Positions 4,725 to 44,301 of a DNA stretch of 64,000 nucleotides are shown in pieces; positions within the stretch are counted from its first letter, which is position 1, and each line of letters opens with the position of its first letter. The stretch comes from Podospora anserina (Eukaryota). The notes below the pieces were generated by a model. It searched no databases, had not been told where the DNA came from, and saw only the letters and a program-made list of their open reading frames with translations. The stretch lies in assembly GCA_017654855.1 (NCBI GenBank), contig JAFMPO010000001.1, positions 62,001-126,000 on the forward strand. Reading direction: 5' to 3'. The position numbers and the translations under genes were made by a program.

Positions 4725-6392
4725 TTAATAACCCTGATTATTTGGGTATCCATACGACTGTCCTTGGTTGGACTGATACTGCTGAGGATTGTACTGTGGG
4801 GGAGGTGGGTATTGGTTCTGTTGACCATGCCCATACTCCTGTGTGGGCGGAGGCGGAAACTGGTTTTGCTGGCCATGCTGATACTCTTGTGTGGGCGGAG
4901 GCGGGAACTGGTTCTGTTGGTATTGCTGTGTTGGCGGAGGGGCATATTGCTGACTGCCCGAGTAGTTGTGTCCCTGCTGGGGAGGTGGGGGAGGATACAC
5001 CCCAGTGATGGGCTGGTTGCCGCCACCGAGCTGAATGTTGTTGGTCACTGCACCCACTTCTACCCCATCATCGTTACTTATATCGTCCGGCACAGTAACC
5101 TTCACCTTGGGCAGGTACCGCTGCACCTTTTGCTCCACAATGCCCTGGACGAAGACCCAGCTTTGCTTCTCGAACTTGCGGTGGCCACCGTTGACGACAC
5201 CAAGGATGCTCTGGCGGAGGGTCTCTTGCACCTTGCGGACGAGGCTACGAATCTTGATGAGCAGCTTGGCCTTGATGTCATCACCAAATCCACGGTCCCC
5301 ACCCGATCTCGAGGCCGAGACAGTATTGTCGAGTTGCGAGTCAAACGGATTGCCGCCCAGAATCTTCTCGAGAGGGCGCTGGAACTGGTCTGGCAACAGC
5401 TCAAACAGCTGCTTCTCAATCTGTCCCAGAATCTTGCGGAATTCGAGGCGAACCTCCCTGTGGACCTTGGCCAAACCGTGACTGAGCTTCTCGCTGATGA
5501 GTTTGGAAAAGCCGCCCTTGCTCTCGCCACCATCATCCTCAGCCCTATCCCCAACGCCCCTGGACGCGCCCTCGCCATGTGACTTCTTGCTTCCGAACAA
5601 GCTCCCAAACCCCTTAACCAAATCCTTCACCTGATCCTCAAACTCCCCCTTCACACCATCACCAAGATCCCTCGTGGTAGTGTTCCCCCGCAACCACTTC
5701 TTAATATGATCCAACGCAATCTTGGTAAACTGCTCCGCAATAGACGTATGTTGATCTCTCAGCTTGGCTCCAACCAACTCCTTGATCTCAGGGGTAATCA
5801 TCCTCGCCTTCTCCTCCGGGTTCCCAGCCACATCCTTGACAGTATTGCTCAAAACCCCCAAGAGCCCATCCAACTGGAACCCCTGACCACCACCAGGGCC
5901 ATCATTCCGCTTATCCAGATGATCCTGAACCACGTCAAACGCCGCAGAAAAGAACTTCTTCATCCCATCCCCCTCCCCCCCACCTCTCGACCTCGTCTCC
6001 CCCTCACCACCAAAGCCCCTCGCTTGCCCACCACCACCACCACCACCAGAAGTCAAGTTAAAAATCTCCGCCAAATCATCACCCACCCCTCCCGGGCCCG
6101 CAACCGCGCCAAAGCTCTTGGTCAACTTGGCAATCTCATTCGCAAAAGACAGGCTCTGTCCACCGTACGAATCAGGAACGTCCTCGTTCAGCCCTCTAGC
6201 ACCAGAGCTAGAGCTGTTGTTGTCTTTGTCGAACAAAGTCCGGAACGCCTCAATGACCTGCTGCTCGAGGCTATCGATGGTCTTGGTCTGGAAGGTCTCG
6301 AGCTCCTCGGTGATGCGGGGCTGGATCTGGGGGGCGAGCGAGTCGACATAATCGTCAACCTTCTTCATCAGGATGTCGGGAAGGGCGGCCAT
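4725..6392 (-). CDS. Hypothetical helical protein (555 aa) with Gly-rich linkers and a C-terminal P/Q/N/Y repeat tail
   Basis: Intronless 555-aa ORF with good start context (caaaATG); C-terminal repeats of FPPPPTQEYxHGQQNQ. Confidence 0.85.
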   Translation of the reverse strand: MAALPDILMKKVDDYVDSLAPQIQPRITEELETFQTKTIDSLEQQVIEAFRTLFDKDNNSSSSGARGLNEDVPDSYGGQSLSFANEIAKLTKSFGAVAGPGGVGDDLAEIFNLTSGGGGGGGQARGFGGEGETRSRGGGEGDGMKKFFSAAFDVVQDHLDKRNDGPGGGQGFQLDGLLGVLSNTVKDVAGNPEEKARMITPEIKELVGAKLRDQHTSIAEQFTKIALDHIKKWLRGNTTTRDLGDGVKGEFEDQVKDLVKGFGSLFGSKKSHGEGASRGVGDRAEDDGGESKGGFSKLISEKLSHGLAKVHREVRLEFRKILGQIEKQLFELLPDQFQRPLEKILGGNPFDSQLDNTVSASRSGGDRGFGDDIKAKLLIKIRSLVRKVQETLRQSILGVVNGGHRKFEKQSWVFVQGIVEQKVQRYLPKVKVTVPDDISNDDGVEVGAVTNNIQLGGGNQPITGVYPPPPPQQGHNYSGSQQYAPPPTQQYQQNQFPPPPTQEYQHGQQNQFPPPPTQEYGHGQQNQYPPPPQYNPQQYQSNQGQSYGYPNNQGY

Positions 6393-6871
6393 TTTGACGG
6401 ATGATAGGGGTGATGCAAGGCGCTAAAGATAGGGTAATAAGGGAATAAGCACCGGGTTGGGTTCGATGTTGGGAAAAACAACTTGAATCGCGTTGCGTTT
6501 CTCTCTGCTGGGGGAAGCTGAGCTGATCGGAGCGGGGTGGAGGGGTTGTTGGGCGCGGCCGATAAGCTGATAAAGCTCCCACTTGACGTCAGCTTTTGGG
6601 GGGTACGGGGGTATTCGTTAGCCATTGTCTCAGATGCTCTTTTTGCCCCGCAAAAAGTGAGCTTATTAGGTGGAGCAGCGCTGAGCTGCTACGGTAACTA
6701 TATACCTATTAAATAGCAACTTGAAATTTTATTTCTCTACTTTTTAATATACTACTAACTTGTGATCTTAGTAACTGACTAATAAACCTGCCTTTTACTT
6801 TCACTACTAACTGATTTAATTTTTATAAAAACTCTACCTTATTAATTCTAATTATGTAATTATATGCGTAC

Positions 6872-7256
6872 TGTCACGGCTTGACACTTGGTGGAGCGCG
6901 GAGCGCACCACGGACCAATCATTAGTACAGGAATAAGGACCAATCAGAACAGAATCAATGTGATCGAGGATCGATCCAGAGGAGTCAACCCCAAAAGAGA
7001 CAATATCGATAGGATCGATGGTCGAGTCTATCGATCCAGGACAGTGCCGGGCTTAGCATTGGGTCTATATATACGGAGGAACTGGCTGGTGTAGATAGAC
7101 AGTTCCGCAGTATGCAATCACAGCTTGTATTCACGGTATCTTGTGTTTACATTGAGACATCTTGTTGTGCACTGTCTAGCTGCACCGAACTAGGATTATT
7201 CAGAAGTGCCTTCGACTAGTATCCCTTTCAGAGGTTCTGGATAGGGGTTCGTCACA
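6872..7256 (+). mobile_element. Solo LTR, crapaud-like family
   Basis: TGTCAC..GTCACA termini, CCAAT boxes and TATATA. Its 3' half (tatatacggaggaactggct..cagaggttctggataggggttcgtcaca) recurs inverted at 30975, 54543 and 54690. Flanks cgtac/cgaaa are not a perfect TSD. Confidence 0.85.
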
Positions 7257-7773
7257 CGAAATCACCTATAAAGGCACCTAGGCCAGGTTAGCAGGAAAAA
7301 GAACCCACTTAAATAACCTACAGTTTTAGAACATAGCGCCGTAAATCCGACGGACATAGTTTTAGAGATACATTTTGTAGTCCAGCAGCATCACGTAAAC
7401 TCGGCATTGGAGCCTGTCATCCTCCTGGAGGTTTGCTAGGTGCAGTCGCTTAAAGTATTTCGTGAAGTTACCGGACGTATAGAGCAAGTAAATAAGTTTA
7501 TCGATACAGGAATTATCCAGCTTTAGACAAAACGCTTTATTAACGTAAAAGAAATATTTTCTCAGCCTATCTTCGTTGACTTAACTGTGACACTGAGAGG
7601 GGGGCCATTTTCGACTGCTGTCCTAAATCTGGGAACCCGTAAGTAAAATTAAAGGCCGCGATTATAGTTTAAGAATTTCTAGTGGTAAGGGGCAAGTACA
7701 AGGTACCTGGAAGTGCGTTATAATAACCGTATTCCGGGGCGCAGCCGGGCGCTTAGCGTCAGCCTCCTAGCTA

Positions 7774-10237
7774 ATGCGACGTCCAAACCAGCGGCTATTG
7801 GGAAAGGCCTTGGTGCCTTCCGCGCCTTGTTCAGCGCCATCTGCGAAGGCGCAAGCATATCCCGCACTCCAGACGCGGTCGAGCGACTTGGCCACGAGGG
7901 TAAGAAAGATAATCAGCTTCGTCCAGACATGACCCTCTGACCCTGACATGGTGTTGACCTCCAGAATCTTACCCTTATCCTTCTTTCAAATCTACGAATC
8001 CTTCCTGCATCTCGCTTGCTCCGTTGCAGCGGCCGTAGCGAGAGCCTCTTCAGCGATCTCTCGAGACTCGACTTCGTCGTCAGCTCCGACTACTTTGATT
8101 TCGACCGTATGATACCTCTCCTCAAGTCAGCAATTACCGACGATAACGATGCCCTCATCTGGAAAGAAGTCTACAAAGTGGTAAGCGAACCTACCCCGCC
8201 TCCCTAGCCCACAGCGTCCTCCCTACAGCAGACTCCGTGGCTTCACAATACAGGAAACTTTGCGAACTCCTCCGAGTACCGTAAAGATGTGGATAGAGTC
8301 CTTAATGATGAATTAGGCGTTATGTACGTCGGGCTCCCTCGATTCTACGAGATATTCTTCGGACGAGTAGCAGATCTCGGAATAATATCCGAGGCTGTCT
8401 TTGAGAAATGCAAGGAAGGTAGCGAACCACTTTGTAGTGATGGGTGGAACGGATGGCCAGAAGACGCGAATCAGGACCATGTCTTGAGCTGGTTTTCGGA
8501 ATTAAGCGAGAAGCCAGCGACGTTTGCAGAAGACTACAGGTCTATCCCAACACATCGACGGCCACTAGCACAGCCCAATAAACCGATCCAGGGCTCAACC
8601 GCCGAACGCAAGCTCGATGTTGGCTTCGTGGACGACCCTAAGGCTGGAAAAGACTCGAGATGCCACTGGTCACGCATCCTCGTACCAGGCGAGCTAAAGA
8701 GCAACCCTGCGGCGGATACAGCGGCCAAGGCCTGGCTAGATATTGGTACATACGCGAGGGAAGTCCTCGCCGCTCAAGAAACTCGCCGATTTGTCTTGGG
8801 CTTTACTCTATGCGGATCTCTTATGAGAGTGTGGGAGTTTGATCGGCTCGGGGGTCTCGCATCTGAGCGGTTTGATATTAACGAGGATGGGTCCCGGTTC
8901 GTATTTACGGTCCTCGGATTTCTCTGGATGAGCGAAGAGGAACTTGGCTTCGACCCGACATTTACAGTAGCCAACGGCCAGCGGTTCATCGAGATTGAGC
9001 GGAACGGTTCGAAGGAACGCCTTATTATCGACAAGGTAATACAGCGAGCACGTTGCGTCGCTGGTCGGGCCACAACATGCTGGAAAGCTCATCGCGAAGG
9101 CCTGCCGCAGATACCGCTCGTTATTAAGACTCGTGGCAGTACCCGGAGCGCGATGAGGAAGGTGAGCTCTTATACGAGGTGACTCGCAAGGGCGTCATCA
9201 AAATGGCTAGATACTATCACCACGAGACGGTTCAGATATATGGAGCGAATGACGACGTCCGAAATAATGTGCGCCGAGGATTAGACATTACCCGTGCTAC
9301 GAACTATCGGCCGGAACGGTCGGCCCTCCAACCGGCCATGGCAGCGTCGGAGGTTTCGCGAAGAGGTTGCGGAAGCAGTACCATGGCTGGCGAGAAACGA
9401 TCGTCTAGCCAAACCGGCGCCTCTCTACCACACAGCAAGCGGACTTGCTCAGCATCTCCAGTAAAAGCCGGCGGCGATCTATCCAATCGGGTGCATCGGC
9501 GTGCGATTCTTCGCGACTATGGACAGCCAATTTACAAGGCCAGCTCCCGAACGTCTCTACTTGCTGCGCTCAGCGGCTGTATTGAAGGGCATGAGTCCCT
9601 GCGCAAGGCTGGCGTCCTTCACAGAGACATCTCCATCAACAACCTCGTGATCAACGAGCATACGAATAATCTCTCCAGGCCTTCGTTTCTGACTGACCTG
9701 GATCTCGCCACTAAAGAGGATCGAGAAGGTGCGTCGGGAGCCAAAGGGAAGACCGGTACAAGAGCGTTTATGGTAATCGGGGCGCTTTTGGGCGAACAAC
9801 ACTCTTTCAAGCACGATCTCGAGTCATTCTTCTGGGTACTGTTTTGGATATGTATTCATTGCAAAGGGCCATTTGAGACCAGAATCGTCGCGCAGTTCGA
9901 CAAGTGGAATTACCTAGACAAAGAGGCGTTGGCGGAGCTGAAGAAAGGAAAAGTAGTTCATGAGGGGGACTTCATCAGGACCGCCGCGCAGAGTTTCACT
10001 CCCTATTATTAACCATTGATACCTTGGGTTAACCGGCTACGGAAAGCTGTGTTTCCAAATGGTGGGAGGTGGGAGAGGGAGGTCAATAGACTACGGAGAA
10101 AGGTATTCCCAAACGGCGGAAGATGGAAGACCCTAGAGCCGAAGCTCTATTCCTCGATGATGGAGATCCTTCGCGAAGCCCAGAAGGGCCCAAACGTGGT
10201 GGCGGATGGCCGAGAGATAGGAAAGAGGTATCCTTAG
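7774..10237 (+). pseudogene. Fungal-specific protein kinase (FunK1/Pkinase_fungal) pseudogene; start approximate
   Basis: Motifs ILVPGELKSN, RRFVLGFTLCG, FDRLGG, GRATTCW, LHRDISINN, DLDLA, TGTRAFM, HDLESFFWVL. Disrupted by TAG at 8205-8207, a frameshift near 9130 and TAA at 10010-10012. Confidence 0.85.
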
Positions 10238-29585: not shown

Positions 29586-30568
29586 GAGGAGGTGGCGTCA
29601 GCACATCTCTGTCAAATACCAAAGCCATCGTGAACAGAGCAAATATCATGAAATGTGCATCTCATTGGATCCATAGGCTGATCTGACTACACCCATCATG
29701 ACAGTCTATCCCGGTATTCAACCTTGCAGCGAGCTAATTCTTTCCCGTCGGGGAAAATCACAAAGAAGAAGAGATTGGCACTGCCCTTCTCAACCGCCAA
29801 GGTGAACTTGACATCTGTCGAATGTTCCTTGTTACCCCATTGATAGAGAGGCCCTTTCTTGATCTCATGCGACAACTCACCATACCACCTACAGGCTAGT
29901 TCGCTATTAGCCATAGAATGCCACATAAATATGCACCGGACAGGAAATTTACTTCGCCTGTTGAAATAATAGGGCGGGATCTCCTCTGTGCAGAGCCAAA
30001 GCTTGTGCGTAAGCCTGAGAGACGTAAGATGTGTCATCAACGTATGTCTGGAATCAATAGTTCTCGTAGGGGTAGCGTCCGTGTGTCGACCGAAGGTCCA
30101 ACATCCACCTCGCTATCGCCATCTTCCCCGGTCGACCGGGCCCAAAATGTTTCGTGGGAAGTATCTAAGCGTCCCATGACTACAAAGAATCTTGAAAATG
30201 CGATCTGCTCGAGGATCGGTAGTGCGAGGTACAGGGGTGTACCTATGGAAGCCGAATTCGAGGGATGCAACGCACGTGGCTACGGACCGGCCCAGATGCG
30301 CACGTCTGGACGTCTCAACTCGTGCATTGGGGTCCTACTATCTGTTGGGATAGCCAATGATTGACTGCTACGGAAATGTTTCATTTCAGATCTCTGAATT
30401 AGTGTTTTCTACCCTGAGGGTGGGTTGGGATGCATATTCCCATGTCACCTTGGCGTCCTTGGGGTCGCCTCACCCGAGTCTACCTGGGGAACAGCGGCTC
30501 CAAAACCACACGGGCGACCTTCCTTGTACCACCAAGATCACATTCATAGCATTCAAACAGTTTGAGAT

Positions 30569-30974
30569 ATGGAGAAACAACTCGCGCCAGCCGGCTTGAA
30601 TCTGGACAGCAATACTTCAGTCCGCATGATTATCGTGATGGGTGTTACTGGGGCTGGGAAAAGCCACTTCATCAACAAACTCGCCGGCAAAAAAAGTCAC
30701 AGATGAAGGAAACTCATTTCGTTCCTGTACGTACAACTTTGCACACCCACTTGTCTTCACCATTACTTATTCCTTGCAATAACAGGTACGTATTGCTGTC
30801 GGCCGTTGTTGATCGAGATTGGCTCGTAGCCAGTTGTGGTGCTTGACACGCCTGGCTTTGATGACTCTGGCAGGACAGACAGACAGATTTTGACCGAGAT
30901 TGCCCGTGCACTTACCGCGCAATACAAGCTCAACCCCCAAGCTCAAGGCCACACACAGCACTAGCTTGGGTCTC
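30569..30974 (+). pseudogene. Truncated fungal G-domain (P-loop GTPase-like) gene fragment
   Basis: IIVMGVTGAGKSHFIN (Walker A) and VVLDTPGFDDS motifs; frame broken in an A-run at about 30690 and sequence ends at an LTR. Confidence 0.7.
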
Positions 30975-31340
30975 TGTGACGATCCCCTGTCCAGAACCTC
31001 TGAAAGGGATACCGGTTGAAGGCGAACTTCTAGATAATGGATCGGTGCAGTTAACAGTGCACAAAAAGATGTCTCAATGTAAACATTTAGGATACCGTGA
31101 ATACAAGCTGAGATTGCATACTGCGGAACTATGTACAAGCTATCTAGTTCCTCCGTATACATAGACCGTGCCAAGTCCCTGATCATTATGATCGTTGTGA
31201 TTATAGCCTTTGATTATAATGCTCGCCATACTCCTAATGATCTTCTCTTGATGGGTCTGTTTCCTTGCTCTTCTGATTGGTTGTTTCCTTCTCTTATCAT
31301 ATTGGTTAGCACTGTCGGGAGTCCGTAGTCAAAAAGGTGA
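30975..31340 (-). mobile_element. Solo LTR, crapaud-like, with 5-bp TSD GTCTC
   Basis: Begins TGTGAC and matches the inverted 3' half of the 6872 LTR. GTCTC is present at 30970-30974 and 31341-31345; the far terminus lacks the final CA. Confidence 0.85.
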
Positions 31341-31866
31341 GTCTCCCAAACACCACACAACCCTCGAGAAGCAAGCTCCCAGTCAGAGCTTATCAAAACT
31401 CAAATCTCTAACCACCAAGGTAGCTCTCCAACCTATCTGTTAACTGCTGTGGACCGGTTAGCTAACGATACAATGGCTGTGATGCACGAGGTGGCTCTTC
31501 TCCGTGCAGCGTGATCCCTTCGCTTCAGAGATATCTTCAAGATTATTCCAATTTATCAAATGGACGGGGCCGATTATGGTGGTGACTCTCGATTGATCGG
31601 CGGGCTTATCGCTGTGGGCGACCTCTCTTCCGAGCCAGTCAAGCCGGCAGGCAAGTGAGTAAATCCAAGAAGTGATACGGACATGGCTTGCAATGCCGGG
31701 CACAGGATCAAAAGTATTGAAAATAGAGTGTATAATCAGACTACACAGGTTCATTACACATTTTACTTCTTGAAATACCATCCACACCCCTCCCAGCTTT
31801 CCCTCTTTTGCCCTAGAACTCCCCGATCACCCCCTTCGCCAAATATCCGCATCAAGTCCCACGCCG

Positions 31867-32829
31867 TCACTCACCACACGGATCTCTCCCATACCGCGCG
31901 CCTATCCCAAAAGCCCTCAACTTCCTTTTCACCAACATCATAACTTGAGCTGCCTGTCCACGGTAAGAACCAAAGCGAAGCTCTACAGTGGCCCATCCCT
32001 CAACTTTATGGCGGTGGGCAACCACCTCTTCCATCTGAAACTCAATCCCGTGAGACACCAAAACTCTCTCCAGGTTTCCATACTCCAAAAAGTGCGCCGG
32101 CCCACTGATAACAATAACCCTTGTATTCTCTCTCGGTGTCTCTTTCTGTGCCACTCTGATCCGGTTAGGCCTCACGCGCGCCATTCTCCCCTTGACCAGC
32201 CAGCCCCCAGCTTGACTCTCATCGCCATATGAGGCCAAAAATCGCTGGGCTGATTGAACATCGAAGAAAGTAATTTTCGCTGCGGCAGAAGTGTGACATC
32301 GAGTAGAGTCTGGGTAGTTAATGACCGTGGCCCAGATACGACCCATTCTGCGGATGCATCCTAGGAGACCCTTGGTATCGATGTCGGATGGCAGCCCGGT
32401 CACCTAGACCGAGGTGTTCAGGTATTCATCTATATCTGCTGACCAGTTCGCCTCGCAAGCGGGATTTCCTTCGTAATTCACCGACATTCCTGGCGGGCGA
32501 GGTACAGGAGACAGGGCGGGTTGAATGCCCATCGAGAGGTGGGGATGACTGGCAGGTGGCATGAGATGTTGATGATGGAGGGTCGGTTCTTGGTGGTACT
32601 GTCTCACGAGGGATTCGTTATCATGACCATGAACAATGATGGGTTGGAAAGTGGCTGCACTGCTTGGTTCTCCGTGTGTACCTGTAGAGTAGGTGTTGTT
32701 GCGCTCATAATACTGACTCGGAAGGCAAATGGGGTTGGTGCTATCGCAGCTAGGATCGGTTGAGTACTGCGTAGAAAACAAAAGGTCAGCCAAGTGATCC
32801 CCGAGATTAGTAGGGAAGATGGTTGCCAT
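31867..32829 (-). CDS. RRM-like RNA-binding protein with one in-frame TAG (32404-32406); possible extra 5' exon(s) up to ~32980
   Basis: Two ORFs abut in the same frame: NYEGNP..NWSADI..NTSV*VTGLP..LLGCIR..GRIWATVIN..AAAKITFF..RVIVISGP..FGSYRGQA..YGRDPC. Paralog at 33834. Confidence 0.7.
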
Positions 32830-33833
32830 AAGCTCACATGAAGCGCATAGAATGATGACAAGTCTGTCGAGGGAGTCCTCAAGGCCCAGTTATCAGCCTC
32901 GTATCTCCAGACCGCTACCCACGGACTGGAGACCATGCTGTGGCTTACTTCAGAGAGGTGATAAAGATGGGGGTTCATCTTGGTCGTGTCGGTCGATAGC
33001 GGGAGTGGAAATTGGGAGATCTGGCAACCAACGGTCAAAGGCACACGGTAGCTGTTTGGATCGTAGAAATCAGAGACCCTCATCTGATGGATATGCGATT
33101 GATGACGCTGGTTGAGCCCTTTGGTTTGATCGATATTTGAAGGAAGATAGTGGGTCGGTCAGATTGAAGGGTTTCAAGTAGGTATTCTGGCTTGTGGACG
33201 ATTGGGACCCGTATTGAGACTTGTAGTTGAAAGTAGTGAATGCCTTGGGCCGATTGTGAACGAGAAAATGGTGAAGGAAAGGTCTGGGCTGCGAAGAAAA
33301 GCGCAGAGATTGCGGAACAGTCGCTTGGTAATAAAAGCAGTGACGACGGACAGATCCAAACAATAGTTTCAAGACAAGTGAATAAGAGCTTGGGCCCAAA
33401 ACGCCGAGAACCCCACCCAAGCTCCCGCTGTCGAGGTGGGGAGTAGATGAATTATGATGACGTTGAATCCATGGCTCATCCTTTTATCGATAAGGGTGCA
33501 GAAAGAGTGTCTTAGCACGGTGTTCACAAAGCTTGAGAATGGTCAAGGCACACATGGTGCACAAAGCAAAGAAAGAGTCACTATAATAAAGCAGAAATTC
33601 AGGGTATCCACGCTAGTACAGAAAAGAAGCTGGAAAAGCAACGCCAACCCGGAGCAAATCCAGCGCTCATATCCAGACCATAGGGTTACCCTTTCCCCCA
33701 AACCTCTAAACTCCTGAAGCCCAGAGACAAATGATCCCGACCCAGCTAATCCCTTCCCGGGCTCCAACACATGCGTTAACCCCACCTAAAACCTAATGCT
33801 TGTCGTAGGGCCAAAGACATCCCGGGACTCCTG

Positions 33834-35667
33834 CTACTCTTCCTGGGAGCCAACCACGGATGGCTCGGCGCATGGGTCAATCCCATAAGTCGCATTTGTC
33901 CCCTTCTTGCGAAAGTATGGGTCGGTCGCGATCATTTCCTTCACCTTCGCAGCCTGCGAGTGAGAGGCGAAATGAAACTCAAGGGTAGACATATCGCCTG
34001 ACGACACCCTCGCTATCTTGTCGAGTTCATACCGGATGTTCTTCATCTCGAAGCACTCCTTCAAGAACGCAACACTCAAACCACCCGTGAGGCCTGTGAT
34101 AACGAGAACCCTTGAAAACTCGCTCGGTAATGTGCTCTGTGCAATTCGACATTTCGCTAATCGAATGTTGCCCTGCACCCCGCCAACCATGAGGTGGCCC
34201 TCTTGGGCAAGCCTCTGCGCAGCTTCCCGCTCAAAAAAGACAACCAGAGCCCCAGAACTGCAGTTCTTTGAGTAGCGAACACGACCATAGCCTCTAATGC
34301 TTCCAAGTAATTTGGAGAGGGTGACATCCTTCGGAAGGTCGAAAATGAAGACAGAGCAGCTGTCATCGGGTGGAACATCCTCAGCCATATCTTCGACAGA
34401 CCAAGCGCTTTGCTGACTGTTATTCGTTGAACTGCAGGGACTGTCTGTTGGTTCCACTGTTCTTTTTGCGTCTTGGGCACGCTTGAATGCGTCGCGAACT
34501 TGTTCAGATGAATTACCATCGAGAGGTTGGACCAATCGGTTGAAAGGACGAGGAGACTCTGTGATCTGGTTCTGACGGCAAGTATTAGATTGGGCGCCGG
34601 AAGGGATGGCATGATGTTGGGAGGATGACAGATGCTGGCGACGAATACTCGGTGTCGAAGACCGGGAAATTGAGCCACTATCGTTGGAAATACCGCGGGG
34701 GGAAAACCGTGATGCTGAGGACTGCTGGTCTGAGGGAGCGAGGGTCGTAGACCTCGAGAGTGCGCCACTCGGACTCTCCACATAATCACTCAGGTCCCCA
34801 AAACCTGACAGCTCCCCACCCCTCAGGCCCACGAGACGAAGGTCTTCCCAGAGCGTATGACCACTTCCCATGGAAGAAGTGGTGTCCGTCCAATTGATGC
34901 TTGCTGCTGCTTGGCATGCATCTCTCTTCCTGGCCATTCTCTCCAACCATCCCGTCTGCATGATTGAGGCACCTTCTCCACCTTCGCGCAAAAACTCGAG
35001 AGAGGAGTCTTTCTCATTGCCCTTACGCTCTAGCCATCCGGGAAGATAAGGGTCGGCAAACGGGCAATCGTCGTCACAATCCTCTAGGCACAAGGCTCCG
35101 CCAGTGAATGTCTAAAGAGTGGCAAGGTGGTTAGTTCTGACTCTTGTGAAGGTTTTTGCACACATTGAAGGGGCTTACCGAAAAGGCTGAATTGGAAGGC
35201 GATGGCGCCGATGACAGATCCACAAATGGCGACGACGGGTCAAAAGGAATCGCGTTAGGGCGTAGCCCGTATTGTCCAGAAAGCCCCAGCGGAGATGGCG
35301 CGTGAGGTGTAGCAGACCGACTTTGGAGATTGAACTGGGGGTAGTAACCTCCATGGGCATGAGGATGTCCAACAATACCGGCATCGGAATGTCCAACGAG
35401 ACCATCGTCGGAATGACCAACGAAACCAGCGTGGGGATGTCCAATGAGACTGTTGTGATCCGGGGCCGAGTAGCTGCGGTGGAAAGCCTGGGACTCGATC
35501 GGGTGAGGAGGGTAGAAGCCGCTGAGGTCATTTGCGACATAGAGACCCACGTTCGTACTGAATTGTACTGGCAGTCCAGGGTGGCCATATCCGGCGCCAG
35601 AGTTGCCCTCGCGAATCTCGTGATACCTTCTGACGCGAGTATTGTTGATCCTGATTGTCGGTCGCAT
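33834..35667 (-). CDS. RRM-like protein paralog with long disordered N-terminus; 1 intron (35112-35178)
   Basis: SVFIFDLP..LLGSIRGYGRV..VVFF..SRVLVITG..FHFAS..YGIDPC aligns by eye with the neighbouring gene; phase-0 GTAAGC..ctaac..TAG intron. Confidence 0.75.
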
Positions 35668-36370
35668 CGTGAGTCTCCTAACCAGGTCGAAGCAGAGCGA
35701 TGATAGTGAAAGGTGGGTGGGTGGATAGATGGGAGAAGGCAAAATAAAATATGCCTGGGTGTAGATGTGGTGGAAGAAACCAAAAAAAAAACAAAATGGT
35801 CGCCGGGAGGTCGAAGGAGAAATAGTCGAGCCAGGCCAGGCCAGGCGGGGCGGTTGCGCGAACTGCCTATTCACGGCGGAATATGAGTGAGGAAGAATGG
35901 GAGTTGCTCCCAGCGTACCTGCCCGCCCACCTTTTCAACACCACGTTCGGCCTTCGAGCACTGCGCTGAACGGAACGCACAGTTAGCGTGCCTGCTTCCA
36001 TTGTCCCAGGCTGTTGTCTTGCTTGAATAACCCATTGGCACGAGCATTGACCCATTCAGCAGTTTTTGTATTCATCATGCCGACTGGTCATTCACCAAGG
36101 TCTCCAATCGGCTGAAGATAACTTCTGCTATTGAACCGCACCTTTTGGGTTGTTGACACTGGTTCTCCCTCCCTGTACACGGCATCATGAGGAGTTGAAG
36201 GCGCCACCATGTCAGCTTGTGCGCAACTGCTGTTGTCTTTTGACTTCATGTGCCTTTAAGTGGAGAGCTTCAGGGCCTACGCTCATCTAGTCTCATCCAA
36301 TCCATTTAAACATACAAAAAACACCATCTACTATCACCGATTTGTGACTTGAGTCCCTTGGTGACACCTC

Positions 36371-36626
36371 CATGACCCAGGCACCCTGACCACAGGTTAA
36401 TGGTCCAACACAAGTAAGTTAACCCATATAACATTGTAAACCATACCTCGAAAGTGAATCAATAGGCCTTTTAAATATCAGTAAAGGCCTTTTAATCATC
36501 TTGAAAGGCTTATCAACTATCTTTGGAAGCTTGGTGATCATCCTTCAAGGTACAGTTCGCAATATAATATGGGTTGACCTATTTGCGTGTGTCAATCATT
36601 TTTGTGGGCAAGGTGCCAGGGTCACG
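36371..36626. mobile_element. MITE-like element, CCACA-type, ~80-bp imperfect TIRs, 21-bp array in reverse orientation
   Basis: tgacccaggcaccctgaccaca..gttaacccatata is the inverted match of atatgggttgacc..tgtgggcaaggtgccagggtca; internal aggcct/aactatctt units. Confidence 0.8.
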
Positions 36627-36924
36627 ATCCAAGAAAAATTAGCAAGAAGAGAAGGCGCAATGTAGACCAGTCAAAGATCTGATGACTTGTTAAATATTGT
36701 GTAGACGCAGTCATATCTTTCGGGGCCAATATGGGCCATTGCAGAGATAGCGTCATTCATGCAATCATTTGGAAAGCTCAGGTCGTTTGCATTCCCGCAA
36801 GCTAAACCCAGAGGTGGCTATGTACAAGTGAAGGTGATGTCCAAGCATAGATTTGACCGCCTTTATAACAAACAGTATGACCAAGCACGATTCGGAGGGC
36901 TGTGAGATGCTTTCTACGGCAGAC

Positions 36925-37877
36925 TCATAGAAGCTCGGTCCAAATCATCAAGGTGCCCGCCATCGACAGTATCATTATCCAAGAGGGGTTGAACGATCCA
37001 GCGCCGGAGCCTGGGGTACTGGTTGTTGTCGTGTCTGTAGTTGTCTCAGTTGTCGTCCCATCAGTTGTCTCGGTTCCCGACTGAGTTGGTGTGGTGGTAG
37101 GAGGAGCAGTAGTTGTAGGGACGTCAACGACGGTGTCAGAGCTGTTGAACCTCTCTGCAATGAACTCGGCTGCATCGAGGGTGTAATTGGCAAAGTATGA
37201 TCCATGCACCGACCGGTCTGATCCCAGGTCGCAATAAATATCACCTTCATCACACCAGCTGCGCATTCTAGCTGCGTATGGCTCACAAGCGGTGATGTTT
37301 TTACGAGCGAACAAGCCCGCACCGGTGCTTGTGCCAGCGCTCCAGGGGTGAGTTTTATTGAAGTCAGGGGAGCCGAATGCAACGATTGCAATAACTTGGA
37401 ATATAGATTAGCCATCCCATGCTTGTGGATACGATAATGCCAGAGGTTCTGCCTACCTTGCGAGCCAAGTGCCTTCTGGAATTCGGGGGACACAAAGAAC
37501 CCATCATCACTGTTTCCGCAGACAGCGTCCATCATGGCGTGAGCTCCCTGCGAATAGCCCAGCAGAGCGACCTTGCTATCAGGACAGGCGTCCACATATT
37601 GAAGAACAAGCTTCTCAAACTCGGAGGCTCCCGTTGCATAGGAGGTAAAGTAATTTTCGAATGTTGCTGGATAGACGATGGTGGCAATTGAAGAGTTGGG
37701 TATCAGCAAGGAAGCATTCTGGGCCACAACTCCAATCCGGCCATACCCGTCAGGTTCAGTAGATCCACGGGCAACGATCATGTGTATGCCCGTTGAGCAT
37801 GTGCCATCCCAGACAAGAGCCTGTCGCTGGAAGAGCGCAGTTGCCAGCGTCAGGGCGCGTGATAAAAGGCCCTTCAT
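36925..37877 (-). CDS. CE5 acetylxylan esterase/cutinase-like protein, probably GPI-anchored; 1 intron
   Basis: Signal peptide, IVARGSTE, CPDSKVALLGYSQGA, WCDEGDIYC..H, T-rich linker and hydrophobic C-terminus. Confidence 0.9.
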
Positions 37878-38305
37878 GTTGTCGATGGTGATCCGAAATT
37901 TTGGAACGGAAGAAATGTCAAAATGAACCGCAAGCAACAAGCTTGAAGTAGGTGGAAATCTCGAATGGGGGGGTCGGAATCCGAAGACCTGGGACAAATC
38001 CGGAGACAACGCATTCTTATCCCCACAGCCCCACCGTGTTGGACCTCGGCGGCGTCGGCGCTAGCTTCAGAACGTTTGAGACAGGGCATCCTGCCGTAAA
38101 AAGTAACCGAATCTGGAACTTGGACCGATTCTTGTGCAGAAAATGGAAATCACCATCGACCACAGTTACGGTGGTATCAACAGCCAGTCGGGGAGAATGC
38201 ATTGCACTAACGGACGGTGTGCTGCGCTTATCAATAGGGAACAGGTGAACCCGACAATGACGCATACCTAGATCAGGTAAGCATGCGTTACGACACCATC
38301 CTTGA

Positions 38306-41603: not shown

Positions 41604-42871
41604 TTATTGCGGAGTGATCGCCAGACGTAAACTCAGCTCGATTCTCAGCCGTAGCTCTGGTTTGATCATGGGGCCTTGACCCCTAACGGGGGTGGCTGCG
41701 TCAAGCCCGGGCTTGTCTTCGTGGCCACCTGTCTTTGAGTCTCCTGGTTGGTTTTCTGCATTTGCTGGACTTTCGCTCGCGGTCGCGTCGGCCGATACTT
41801 GGTCTTGGATTTGCCGGAGCCTTTTGCGCTTTTTGGTGTATATCCAGAAACCCGCACCGACTGCTAGGATACCTGGCACTCTAACAACGATCCCCACTAC
41901 TCATCCCACTGGAAGCGTTGCCTGTTTCGTAATGTAATGAGGCGAAAACGTTGATTGATTTAGGAAAGAAATCAACTACGGAGCAGAACTGCGGAAGAAG
42001 CTAAACCAGCCCAGTTTGGCCCGAGCTCCCTGGCGGAGCGGCCTGGTGGTGACGCACACAACATAATGCCATCTATATCTTCAGGGCGCCAAACAAACTG
42101 AATGACAGGCGCAGCTGTAATTATACTGTACGTCGGCGCATCTTTTCGCCCCGCTGGCCCTCCTGGAGGTAACTCGACTCTTCGATGGGCAACCATAAAC
42201 AACACGGATTCGATGGTAGTTATTGGAGGAGCTTGTATCACTGTTAAGATATCGGACTCCATATTCGTGCCACAACTTATAAAGCTTTGAGGTCCCGGCG
42301 AGGCGCTAGAGGAGCAGTGTAGAAAGTTATGAATTTGTGTAGAAACGCTTAAGGGGCCGCTGACGGCAACGGAGACAAAGCTGTACGGCCTGAGTCGAGG
42401 AGAAGGATAAAGTATGTAAGTAGCTAGGTAGGTATTGTGCCCATGAATGGAGTTATTGAATCCGACCTTATAACAAACATGGAAAAATAAAAATGTGATG
42501 ACTCACGATGGACAGCATATTGCAGTGCTTTCATTCAGTGAAATGTGGCTCGACACGTCGGCTGCGACGGCTGCTGTATACCAACCCACTGGGCAGTAGA
42601 TTCCCGGACAATATACCGCCCACTTCTACACAACTCCACCAGGAAGACATGGCGAGTGTTAGCCTATACAGTCCGACGAGTAGATGACCGGGTTGTAACT
42701 GGAAGTGCCAAAGCCTCATGGCAGAAAAGCCTCGTTGCAGTGAGATGGGGGCGTGAAGACGATGGTAAGGGGCCCAACCGTCTCGTAGCTGTAAGGATCT
42801 GAGCTTGCACTGTCTACCGGCCAGGTAATTGTCGGTGTTGTCATAGAGGCCTGGTCTTCGAGGAGAGCCAT
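41604..42871 (-). pseudogene. Degenerate cysteine-rich membrane-anchored protein
   Basis: GPLTIVFTPPSHC..YCPGIYCPVGWYTA..TAICCPS and a later TM segment followed by KKRKR; three in-frame stops in the first exon. Confidence 0.6.
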
Positions 42872-44301
42872 CGTAGGGTATTCTACTTGGTTGATGAGAA
42901 GGATTAAAAGGATCAGGTAAAAGTAGTAGGGTTAAAAGCCTAGACTTCAAAGAAAATGGATGAAGTTGGACAGTGAGTACGGTGCCCGACTATTTTAAAG
43001 CACACCTGACGCAAGTTCACCGTCACGTCTGACACAAGAGATGTAACAACGATTTTCATCGAGGATGTTGTGCCGTAAGTGAGTGGTACTAGCGCAGGTA
43101 CATACCTCAGTCACCGAGTGCTGCAGTATTGTGAGACGCGGGTCTCAACGGTCTCGACTTAGACCGAGGAGTTGACTGTCGAATTATCAGCGGTAAATCG
43201 GTAACAAGCAGACACCACATCTTCGTATAGATTACCACAGAGAGGGACAAAAGCACATCGTGGATCACTCATACGCTCTTATCTAGGTATACAACGATGA
43301 CCAACATGTACCCCCCCACTTGCCCTACCATTGATATTCGATCACTGATTACGGAGGTCAAAGGAGTCATGTTATTTCTTTAATAACGGATTATATTAAA
43401 TTGCTGCCTCTTGTTGCCTTCATCTCGTTCCGACCCTCGATCATGGTCAAGGTCTGAACAATCTCGGGTTGTGCGGTCGGCTGTGTCTTGTTTGTGAATT
43501 ACATGGCACTTGCTGTCATATTGCACAGGGAAGGCTAGCATTTCAAAGGTAAACTTGTATAAAACTTGGTATCATTTACTCCCTGCTATGCCTTCGCTTT
43601 CAATAACTACGAAGATTCCAAATCCATCATGAACTTCCACAATCTCCACAGTGACCGGACTGTCCTGTTCTCACCATCGCCTACTTCATCTTGTAGGTAA
43701 CTCTACCATAGTCTCTTTCGCGTTTCAAATCAACGACAGAAAGATACATAGACGTCCTGGTTGTCAATAGGCACCTAGGTACTCTCGAAAGGTGATGCTG
43801 GGAACCTCCCATACAGTAATAGGTAGAAGTAGATGAGAAACGCCTACCTTTTCACACGTTGACATCTCCTCGGAAGTACCCTTGCAGCTTCAGAATTTTG
43901 GGGCGGTGAACTTGAATGCAATTTTATCTCGGTGTCAAAGTCACCATCGAATTGTAAACCTGGGGCTTTTGAGCAGCATCCCAAAGACCAAAGACAGAAA
44001 TACCCCGGAGAGATGTAGAAGATGACGCGGCAGATTGGGGCTAGGTAGATTTCTAACTTTAGAACCAGGTAGGTAGGTTAGATGCGCCTGCATCCGGCCA
44101 TTGCACATTCAGGGCTGGGATGAAGTTGCTCCCATTGACAGCATAGAAGGTGATTAGTACCTAGGTTTTCAGCCGGGATGGGGACTCCAGATCACTCAAT
44201 GCTGCAACACGTCAATCAACAATATACCTCATGCAAGATCACCGAGTAGAAGAAATCCCGTCCAGCACCCCGAAACTGCTCCTTCTCAGCTCGACTTGCT
44301 A

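Follow-up and report, generated by a model that had tools for sequence, protein, structure and literature searches.

A conserved-tryptophan UAG in a tandem RRM-fold gene of Podospora anserina: a candidate target of stop-correcting A-to-I editing

Within a 64,000-nucleotide stretch of Podospora anserina DNA (the window), the gene Pa_1_21424 carries a single in-frame TAG, and we propose that it is nevertheless a live gene whose full-length product would need codon 203 (UAG) to be recoded to UGG (tryptophan) by A-to-I editing of the mRNA. The editing would be of the premature-stop-correction (PSC) type, carried out by ADAT (Tad2/Tad3), as in the sexual development of Sordariomycetes. The unedited mRNA would give a 202-residue N-terminal protein that ends upstream of the modelled conserved domain. 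The edited mRNA would give a 381-residue protein with two RRM-fold domains, and the restored tryptophan would be the aromatic residue in the RNP2 strand of the first domain. We consider it plausible that Pa_1_21424 is a PSC editing target, and this is the best single explanation that we have, with about an even chance of being right; we infer the editing itself from indirect evidence.

Editing had been suggested in an earlier note on this DNA. As far as can be judged from sequences, every indirect prediction that could be tested had the outcome that editing calls for: the stop lies at a conserved tryptophan position, the TAG is not private to one strain, the site is not spliced out, the sequence context is favorable, and the part behind the stop is better conserved than the part in front of it. 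On the other hand, the RNA contigs that cross the site are unedited.

If the editing is real, Pa_1_21424 would be a clean PSC gene in a genetic model, Podospora anserina, where staged perithecial RNA and swaps between TAG, TGG, and TAA alleles are readily made, and six public gene models, in which the stop is hidden behind 3- or 6-letter gaps, would be corrected. Developmental control would also be attached to a fungal tandem-RRM family (787 representatives at E ≤ 0.001). The conceptual gain would be small, with no new mechanism, as good descriptions of this one exist from Fusarium and Neurospora. If the site is not edited, the gene would be an ordinary shared pseudogene that is kept alive by annotation pipelines.

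Gene structure and RNA across the stop

Pa_1_21424 lies on the minus strand and consists of two exons with 381 codons; its ATG is at 33083. The first coding exon (32838..33083; 82 codons, MRVSDFYDP...FYALH) is an open frame that corresponds to the first 82 residues of the Podospora comata protein P0004, and its end is set by a joint in the RNA contigs. It is followed by a 71-nt GT..AG intron (32767..32837) and by the second coding exon (31867..32766), which has 299 codons plus the terminal stop, includes the one internal TAG, and has a translation that is 97% identical to P0004. The earlier note had placed the gene at 31867..32829. The upper coordinate falls inside the intron, and the gene is longer.

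The transcript spans 31822..33405 on the minus strand, according to the RNA contigs. Table S1 of PMC9801653 lists Pa_1_21424 as a minus-strand transcript with UTRs of 324 nt (5') and 59 nt (3'). The spacing in that table between Pa_1_21424 and its neighbors Pa_1_21420 and Pa_1_21430 fits the genes of the window at 27.7-29.9 kb and 36.8-37.9 kb. In the accessible part of PMC9801653, the best coverage of Pa_1_21424 is from a data set labelled “Sexual developement” / “entire life cycle”; we did not count this label as evidence for expression in the sexual stage. A full-text literature search for Pa_1_21424 returned no paper about it and a single occurrence, in this same Table S1. The supplements of PMC6709928 gave no match to the four gene ids that we tried.

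The in-frame TAG is at 32404..32406 (codon 203 of 381), so that the candidate edited A is at position 32405 of the plus strand. The minus strand at 32418..32389 reads AAC ACC TCG GTC TAG GTG ACC GGG CTG CCA, just as had been noticed at the outset. The long frames on either side of the stop are in the same frame and abut: 32404..32889 ends in ...EYLNTSV, and 31867..32403 begins with VTGLPSDID. There is indeed no other lesion. If the TAG is read as tryptophan, exon 2 translates to 299 residues in which W121 is the sole recoded position, and the gene has 0 frameshifts and 0 other internal stops.

We examined contigs from four sequencing runs (X1, X2, X5, and X6). These runs are not recorded as RNA, and we took them to be RNA because introns are removed and intergenic stretches are empty: six canonical introns are spliced out, and there is no cover over intergenic stretches such as 31401-31800 and 35401-36600. 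Two contigs cross the TAG. One, from X1 (record 3; 1502 nt, depth 25.1), covers 31822-32766 and 32838-33394, and the other, from X2 (record 7; 1488 nt, depth 30.5), covers 31847-32766 and 32838-33405. The 71-nt intron is absent (joint 32766>32838) from the contigs of three of the four runs (X1, X2, and X5), and X6 has no contig there. The contig from X5, at a depth of 3, ends at 32398, which is 7 letters short of the site.

Both of these bridging contigs have an unedited A in the TAG. At least in the X1 and X2 samples, then, most molecules are unedited there; as contigs drop minority variants, and as the samples may be from any tissue, editing may still occur. Across the 12 kb of the window that was compared with the contigs, we found no A>G-type differences. 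There are six differences of other types (at 32241, 33211, 27967, 29819, 37264, and 37294), which are shared across runs of two studies and are probably strain differences. Within Pa_1_21424, the X1 and X2 contigs depart from the window only at 33211 and 32241. The former is G>A and is seen in X6 too. The latter (A>C in X1, X2, and X5) lies in the first RRM-fold domain, within its second half, and replaces phenylalanine with valine where all of the sister species keep phenylalanine. The RNA contigs, which are from a strain with six other differences, carry the TAG as well, so it is not private to the strain of the window.

An alternative is that the TAG is removed by splicing, either as an acceptor or within a tiny intron as in the gene models of sister species, or that it is an assembly error. 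The annotated sister models do omit 3 or 6 letters at the site, and a 78-nt in-frame interval, GTGAAT...TAG, can be drawn by eye. However, the X1 and X2 contigs bridge the site with neither a joint nor a changed letter, whereas the real 71-nt intron, which lies 360 nt upstream, has been spliced out of them. The TAG does not act as a splice acceptor in them, as had been argued from the sequence. Because these contigs are unspliced and unchanged at the TAG, splicing over the stop as the major form is refuted, and so is an assembly error; we give this explanation next to no chance. Furthermore, such splicing would take out the N-[CT]-S motif, which is conserved in the family (with N in 136 of 152 aligned rows), and introns of 3-6 nt are not known to be spliceable.

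The main rival explanation is that Pa_1_21424 is a shared, still-transcribed pseudogene. A change from TGG to TAG would have been fixed before the P. anserina complex split, either the 202-residue fragment or nothing useful would be made, and the downstream part would be decaying slowly. We lean against this explanation but regard it as a serious possibility. It is favored by the unedited TAG in the RNA contigs and by the non-synonymous strain difference at 32241, which lies in the downstream domain. It also needs no rare mutation. The coding sequence contains 7 TGG, 7 CAG, 8 CAA, and 2 CGA codons, and by simple arithmetic, with the present TAG counted as a former TGG, 8 of the 33 transition routes to a stop give TAG at a tryptophan codon. 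Such a TAG is about a 1 in 4 outcome for a random nonsense transition; it is suggestive, then, without being rare.

The earlier note had added that a simple nonsense mutation would be compatible with repeat-induced point mutation (RIP). The composition of the coding sequence lends this no support, although a single G>A is beyond the reach of such indices: TpA/ApT is 0.63 and (CpA+TpG)/(ApC+GpT) is 1.26, which is the same as in the neighboring genes and compares to 0.68 and 1.23 for the whole window. Elsewhere in the window, the bins at 6001-8000 and 42001-44000 are RIP-like (TpA/ApT of 1.06 and 0.96, and (CpA+TpG)/(ApC+GpT) of 1.04 in both) and have a lower GC content (about 0.47-0.48). These bins may be RIP-mutated repeats.

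One point against a pseudogene is that the stop is on an editable codon and in a favorable context. The accessible text of PMC9600606 reports that editing in Fusarium prefers C or U at position -2, U at -1, A or G at +1, G at +2, and A or G at +3 and +4. In the TAG, the A has the U at -1 that was pointed out earlier, and with C at -2, G at +1, G at +2, U at +3, and G at +4, it matches at five of the six positions, as scored with the preference from Fusarium for a site in Podospora. The one mismatch, U at +3, is a depleted base. We tested 353 A's of the spliced transcript (1513 nt): 55 of them follow a U, and just four, including the one in the TAG, combine this with a match at five or more of the six positions. 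Any UAG already meets two of the six, though, and by arithmetic about a quarter of random UAGs would reach five.

We also considered RNA structure. In short contexts only, a local hairpin is predicted at 32395..32413 (minus strand), with a 7-bp stem and a loop, UAGGU, that holds the A. This is the best fold of the 31- and 41-nt pieces (-12.3 kcal/mol), and the A is likewise in a loop in one longer context. In the minimum-energy folds with 25 or 30 nt on each side, the A is paired (in the stem-closing pair with 30 nt on each side, which is the protocol in the accessible part of PMC9600606). Depending on which of eight flank sizes is used, the A has an ensemble pairing probability anywhere between 0.00 and 0.61. 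Because the z-score is just -1.28 (23 of 200 shuffled sequences fold as well) and the fold changes with the flank size, we rejected the hairpin as decisive evidence, and we consider the predicted RNA structure to be neutral as to editing.

Two other loci near Pa_1_21424 are worth describing. On the plus strand, 30566-30964 contains pieces of open reading frames in differing frames, with P-loop GTPase-like motifs (GVTGAGKSHFINKLAGK, then VVVLDTPGFDDSG). These pieces belong either to an intron-containing gene or to one that is broken. There is very little RNA cover here, and X2 contigs have loose ends (at 30975 and 31341-31342) where they continue into unrelated sequence. The gene at 36796-37936 on the minus strand has very deep RNA contigs (depth 800-1400), one 62-nt intron, and a GYSQGA motif in its open reading frame, which we take to be typical of serine esterases of the cutinase or acetylxylan-esterase type. 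By position, this gene corresponds to Pa_1_21430.

The protein family and the position of the stop

An exhaustive, profile-free search with Pa_1_21424 returned 787 relatives with E ≤ 0.001, of which 495 have E ≤ 1e-10. The relatives that we looked up are from Sordariomycetes (Cercophora, Triangularia, Apiosordaria, Podospora, Xylaria, and Astrocystis). The conserved part of the protein extends from near residue 92 of exon 2 to the C-terminus.

To count the residues opposite the stop, we used 152 aligned sequences: the query, the paralog in the window, the Apiosordaria backusii protein P0005, and 149 of the 150 best matches. The site is skipped in P. comata P0004 and in four other models from the Podospora complex, which were therefore left out. 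In the 151 aligned sequences besides the query, the residue opposite the stop is tryptophan in 102, phenylalanine in 43, tyrosine in 4, and serine in 1, with a gap in 1. The tryptophan that had been expected here is thus the majority residue, and 149 of the 151 aligned relatives have W, F, or Y. The motif around this column is N-[CT]-S-[LVF]-[WF]-[ILV]-x-[NG]-L-P, which is RNP2-like. A change of UAG to UGG would restore the majority residue of the family.

The tyrosines at this column bear on another explanation, which is translational readthrough. A near-cognate tRNA would insert Tyr, Gln, or Lys at the UAG, and a little full-length protein would be made with no editing. Tyrosine is in fact found at the stop column in 4 of 151 relatives, and the UAG is kept in the mRNA. 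However, the stop and the bases after it (UAG followed by GGUGAC) are unlike the readthrough contexts UGA-CUA and UAG-CARYYA. We consider readthrough to be a minor rival and quite improbable.

Pfam places neither protein in a family. For Pa_1_21424, no Pfam family scored above its threshold (RRM_7 reached 12.2 bits against a cut-off of 27), and for the paralog, RRM_1 reached 11.6 bits against 20.7. A profile search of the sequences in the PDB found RRM proteins at E values of 0.026-0.65 only. The relationship is clearer from structure prediction. AlphaFold2, with an alignment of 88 rows, gave a model of the 208 C-terminal residues with a pLDDT of 96.5 and a pTM of 0.90, and the model has two beta-alpha-beta-beta-alpha-beta units. 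According to the model and to Foldseek, the first RRM-fold domain comprises model residues 28-109 (32167..32412, minus strand) and the second comprises residues 126-201 (31891..32118, minus strand). The stop corresponds to model residue 30, which is inside the first strand (E28-34) of the first domain, at the RNP2 position. This agrees with its placement in an RNP2-like strand from the sequence alone.

The top Foldseek matches to the model are all tandem-RRM proteins (Prp24 of the U6 snRNP, HuR, Sxl, HuD, and hnRNP A1), with E values of 1e-8 to 1e-5 and a probability of 1.00. The TM-score for the whole model is only about 0.3, which would follow from a different packing of the two domains. The description of the gene as RRM-like therefore holds for the fold, as modelled by AlphaFold2 and matched by Foldseek, but not for membership in a Pfam RRM family, as the scores are below the gathering score. 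We consider the protein to be RRM-like at the level of the predicted fold and a putative RNA-binding protein.

Compared with canonical tandem RRM proteins (Prp24, HuR/HuD, Sxl, and the UP1 fragment of hnRNP A1), this family is alike in having two beta-alpha-beta-beta-alpha-beta domains and an RNP2-like motif, L/V-[WFY]-I/V-x-[NG]-L. It differs in that sequence identity is just 10-17%, with sub-threshold Pfam RRM scores (11.6-12.2 bits), and in that tryptophan dominates the RNP2 position instead of phenylalanine or tyrosine.

The adjacent paralog is on the minus strand at 33837..35111, and possibly extends to about 35934. It belongs to the same family, as judged from its open reading frame and the alignment (29% identity to Pa_1_21424 over 217 residues, E = 2e-21), and its frame is uninterrupted. 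As the earlier note had read it, the paralog has phenylalanine at the homologous position (SVFIFDLP as compared to SV*VTGLP, where the asterisk is the stop). An Atlas search with the paralog found unnamed Ascomycota clusters at 0.91-0.92 and one RRM_1 cluster at 0.77. RNA contigs from the four runs barely cover the paralog. Table S1 of PMC9801653 lists no transcript for it either, as the entry that comes directly after Pa_1_21424 is Pa_1_21430. Judging by consecutive accession numbers, adjacent members of the family are also found in A. backusii and Cercophora samala.

The stop and the downstream domain among relatives

The best protein match to Pa_1_21424 is P. comata P0004, with 97% identity over the whole query. 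The cluster that contains P0004 includes orthologs from four further species of the P. anserina complex, and all of their gene ids end in _121424. None of these models contains the stop. The P. comata model reads NTSV-VTGLP, which is the P. anserina sequence without exactly the stop codon. The models from P. pseudoanserina, P. pseudopauciseta, P. bellae-mahoneyi, and P. pseudocomata read NTS--VTGLP, with two codons absent; these codons correspond to the letters GTCTAG in the window, which form a GT..AG pair. All four of these models carry the name LOW QUALITY PROTEIN. The accessible part of PMC10936905 states that these four annotations were made with MAKER and Exonerate, with proteins from P. 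anserina and P. comata as evidence. In the accessible part of PMC11169179, small false introns over a conserved PSC site are described as an annotation artefact of CHE1 in Fusarium.

These protein models, which skip the site, suggest that the TAG is very probably common to the P. anserina complex. P. comata might instead have a true 3-nt deletion in place of the stop. In addition, P0014, a 178-residue open reading frame on a genomic contig from another strain, begins with the GTG that immediately follows the stop. Among all 10 members of the Pa_1_21424 protein cluster, we found no open reading frame with tryptophan at the site. The members of this cluster that are from Logan appear to be genomic, as they are on contigs of about 22-34 kb, so they are not evidence against editing. 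A 23-letter pattern that spans the site matched one metagenome locus (L001, 1959 bases), in which the variable letter is C. We rejected it as a chance match, as it is in an unrelated GC-rich contig with no homology outside of the pattern.

Outside of the complex, the ortholog from Cercophora samala (P0015, KAK0665771.1; 48% identity by BLASTP or 55% by phmmer) is the sole sequence with a gap at the stop column among the 151 aligned relatives. Its model lacks 18 residues (SVWVTGLPSDIDTKGLLG) exactly over the site of the Podospora stop, and these residues are the first strand of the first RRM-fold domain. The gene model for KAK0665771.1 is probably wrong, and the C. samala locus may hide the same stop. 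If so, a lesion at the same place in a more distant species would be an odd coincidence for independent decay, which argues against a pseudogene. The curators also retained a protein-coding model in all six Podospora species. Conversely, the closest full-length ortholog from outside the complex, from A. backusii (64% identity), has serine at the site. This suggests that the aromatic residue is not indispensable there, and it counts in favor of a pseudogene.

If the C. samala locus does contain the stop, then the UAG might be an old developmental switch that has been kept by selection. The UAG would predate the split between the P. anserina complex and C. samala, so that at least 7 species would have the TAG, and A. 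backusii would have a serine codon that is one step from TAG. Vegetative cells would make only the 202-residue protein, and cells that are competent for editing would make the tandem-RRM form. One gene would then encode two proteins with different functions, in a family with hundreds of members across the Ascomycota. We think that this extended scenario is unlikely.

Returning to the proposal that the stop is corrected by editing, the part behind the stop should be constrained. Across the window and the five sister species, 13 of 178 amino-acid columns are variable downstream of the stop, as compared to 18 of 118 in the part of exon 2 that is upstream (Fisher p = 0.034). In exon 1, 14 of 82 columns vary, as counted in the five sister species only. 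Translation beyond the stop would predict such lower variability downstream, and the comparison points to it weakly, as the species are very close and only protein columns were compared. The only indels among the Podospora models are a 1-residue insertion and a 2-residue insertion, both of which are in frame. We infer from these comparisons that the domain after the stop is under constraint.

Both of these patterns count against a pseudogene: variability in the domain behind the stop is about half of that in the part in front of it, and indels that disrupt the frame are not seen. On the other hand, because the species differ by just a few percent (13 of 178 columns), the absence of further lesions is weak evidence. 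Pseudogenes are not unusual in this group either, as the genome papers for P. anserina and P. comata reportedly describe hundreds of them.

Comparison with known editing systems

According to the accessible text of a review (PMC11156358), PSC A-to-I editing is performed by Tad2/Tad3 with stage-specific cofactors, and the PSC genes known from Fusarium graminearum are PUK1 and 70 others, including AMD1, FgRID, FgAMA1, and FgBUD14; Neurospora crassa has PSC genes as well. Pa_1_21424 resembles the PSC genes described there in several ways. One in-frame UAG interrupts its otherwise intact coding sequence, the A is preceded by U, UAG>UGG would restore a tryptophan, and the putative functional domain lies downstream of the stop. 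Also, P. anserina is a sordariomycete with sexual development. It differs from them in that its RNA contigs are unedited at the site, and a fungal tandem RRM-fold family is not among the examples named in that text. Our literature search did not find a catalogue of edited sites for P. anserina, and the accessible text of one preprint (10.1101/2024.12.09.627484) mentions editing in general terms only.

Another parallel is CHE1 from F. graminearum, as described in the accessible part of PMC11169179. Its stop is conserved in close relatives, as is very probably the case in Podospora, judging by the gene models. Both genes show annotation artefacts, which are truncation, a downstream start, or a small false intron over the stop, and in both, conservation is lower in the N-terminal part than in the domain that follows the stop. 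CHE1 is a C2H2 zinc-finger factor that is edited in hyphae, with stimulation by oxidative stress, and its allele swaps have phenotypes.

Within P. anserina itself, the accessible part of PMC8092012 reports RNA-seq evidence for the editing of a conserved apparent stop in Uhera, a gene in the Enterprise/Spok block. Uhera and Pa_1_21424 are from the same genus, and each has an apparent stop that is conserved in homologs, very probably so for Pa_1_21424. In contrast to Pa_1_21424, Uhera is a putative DEAD-like helicase, and its stop is near the start of the gene.
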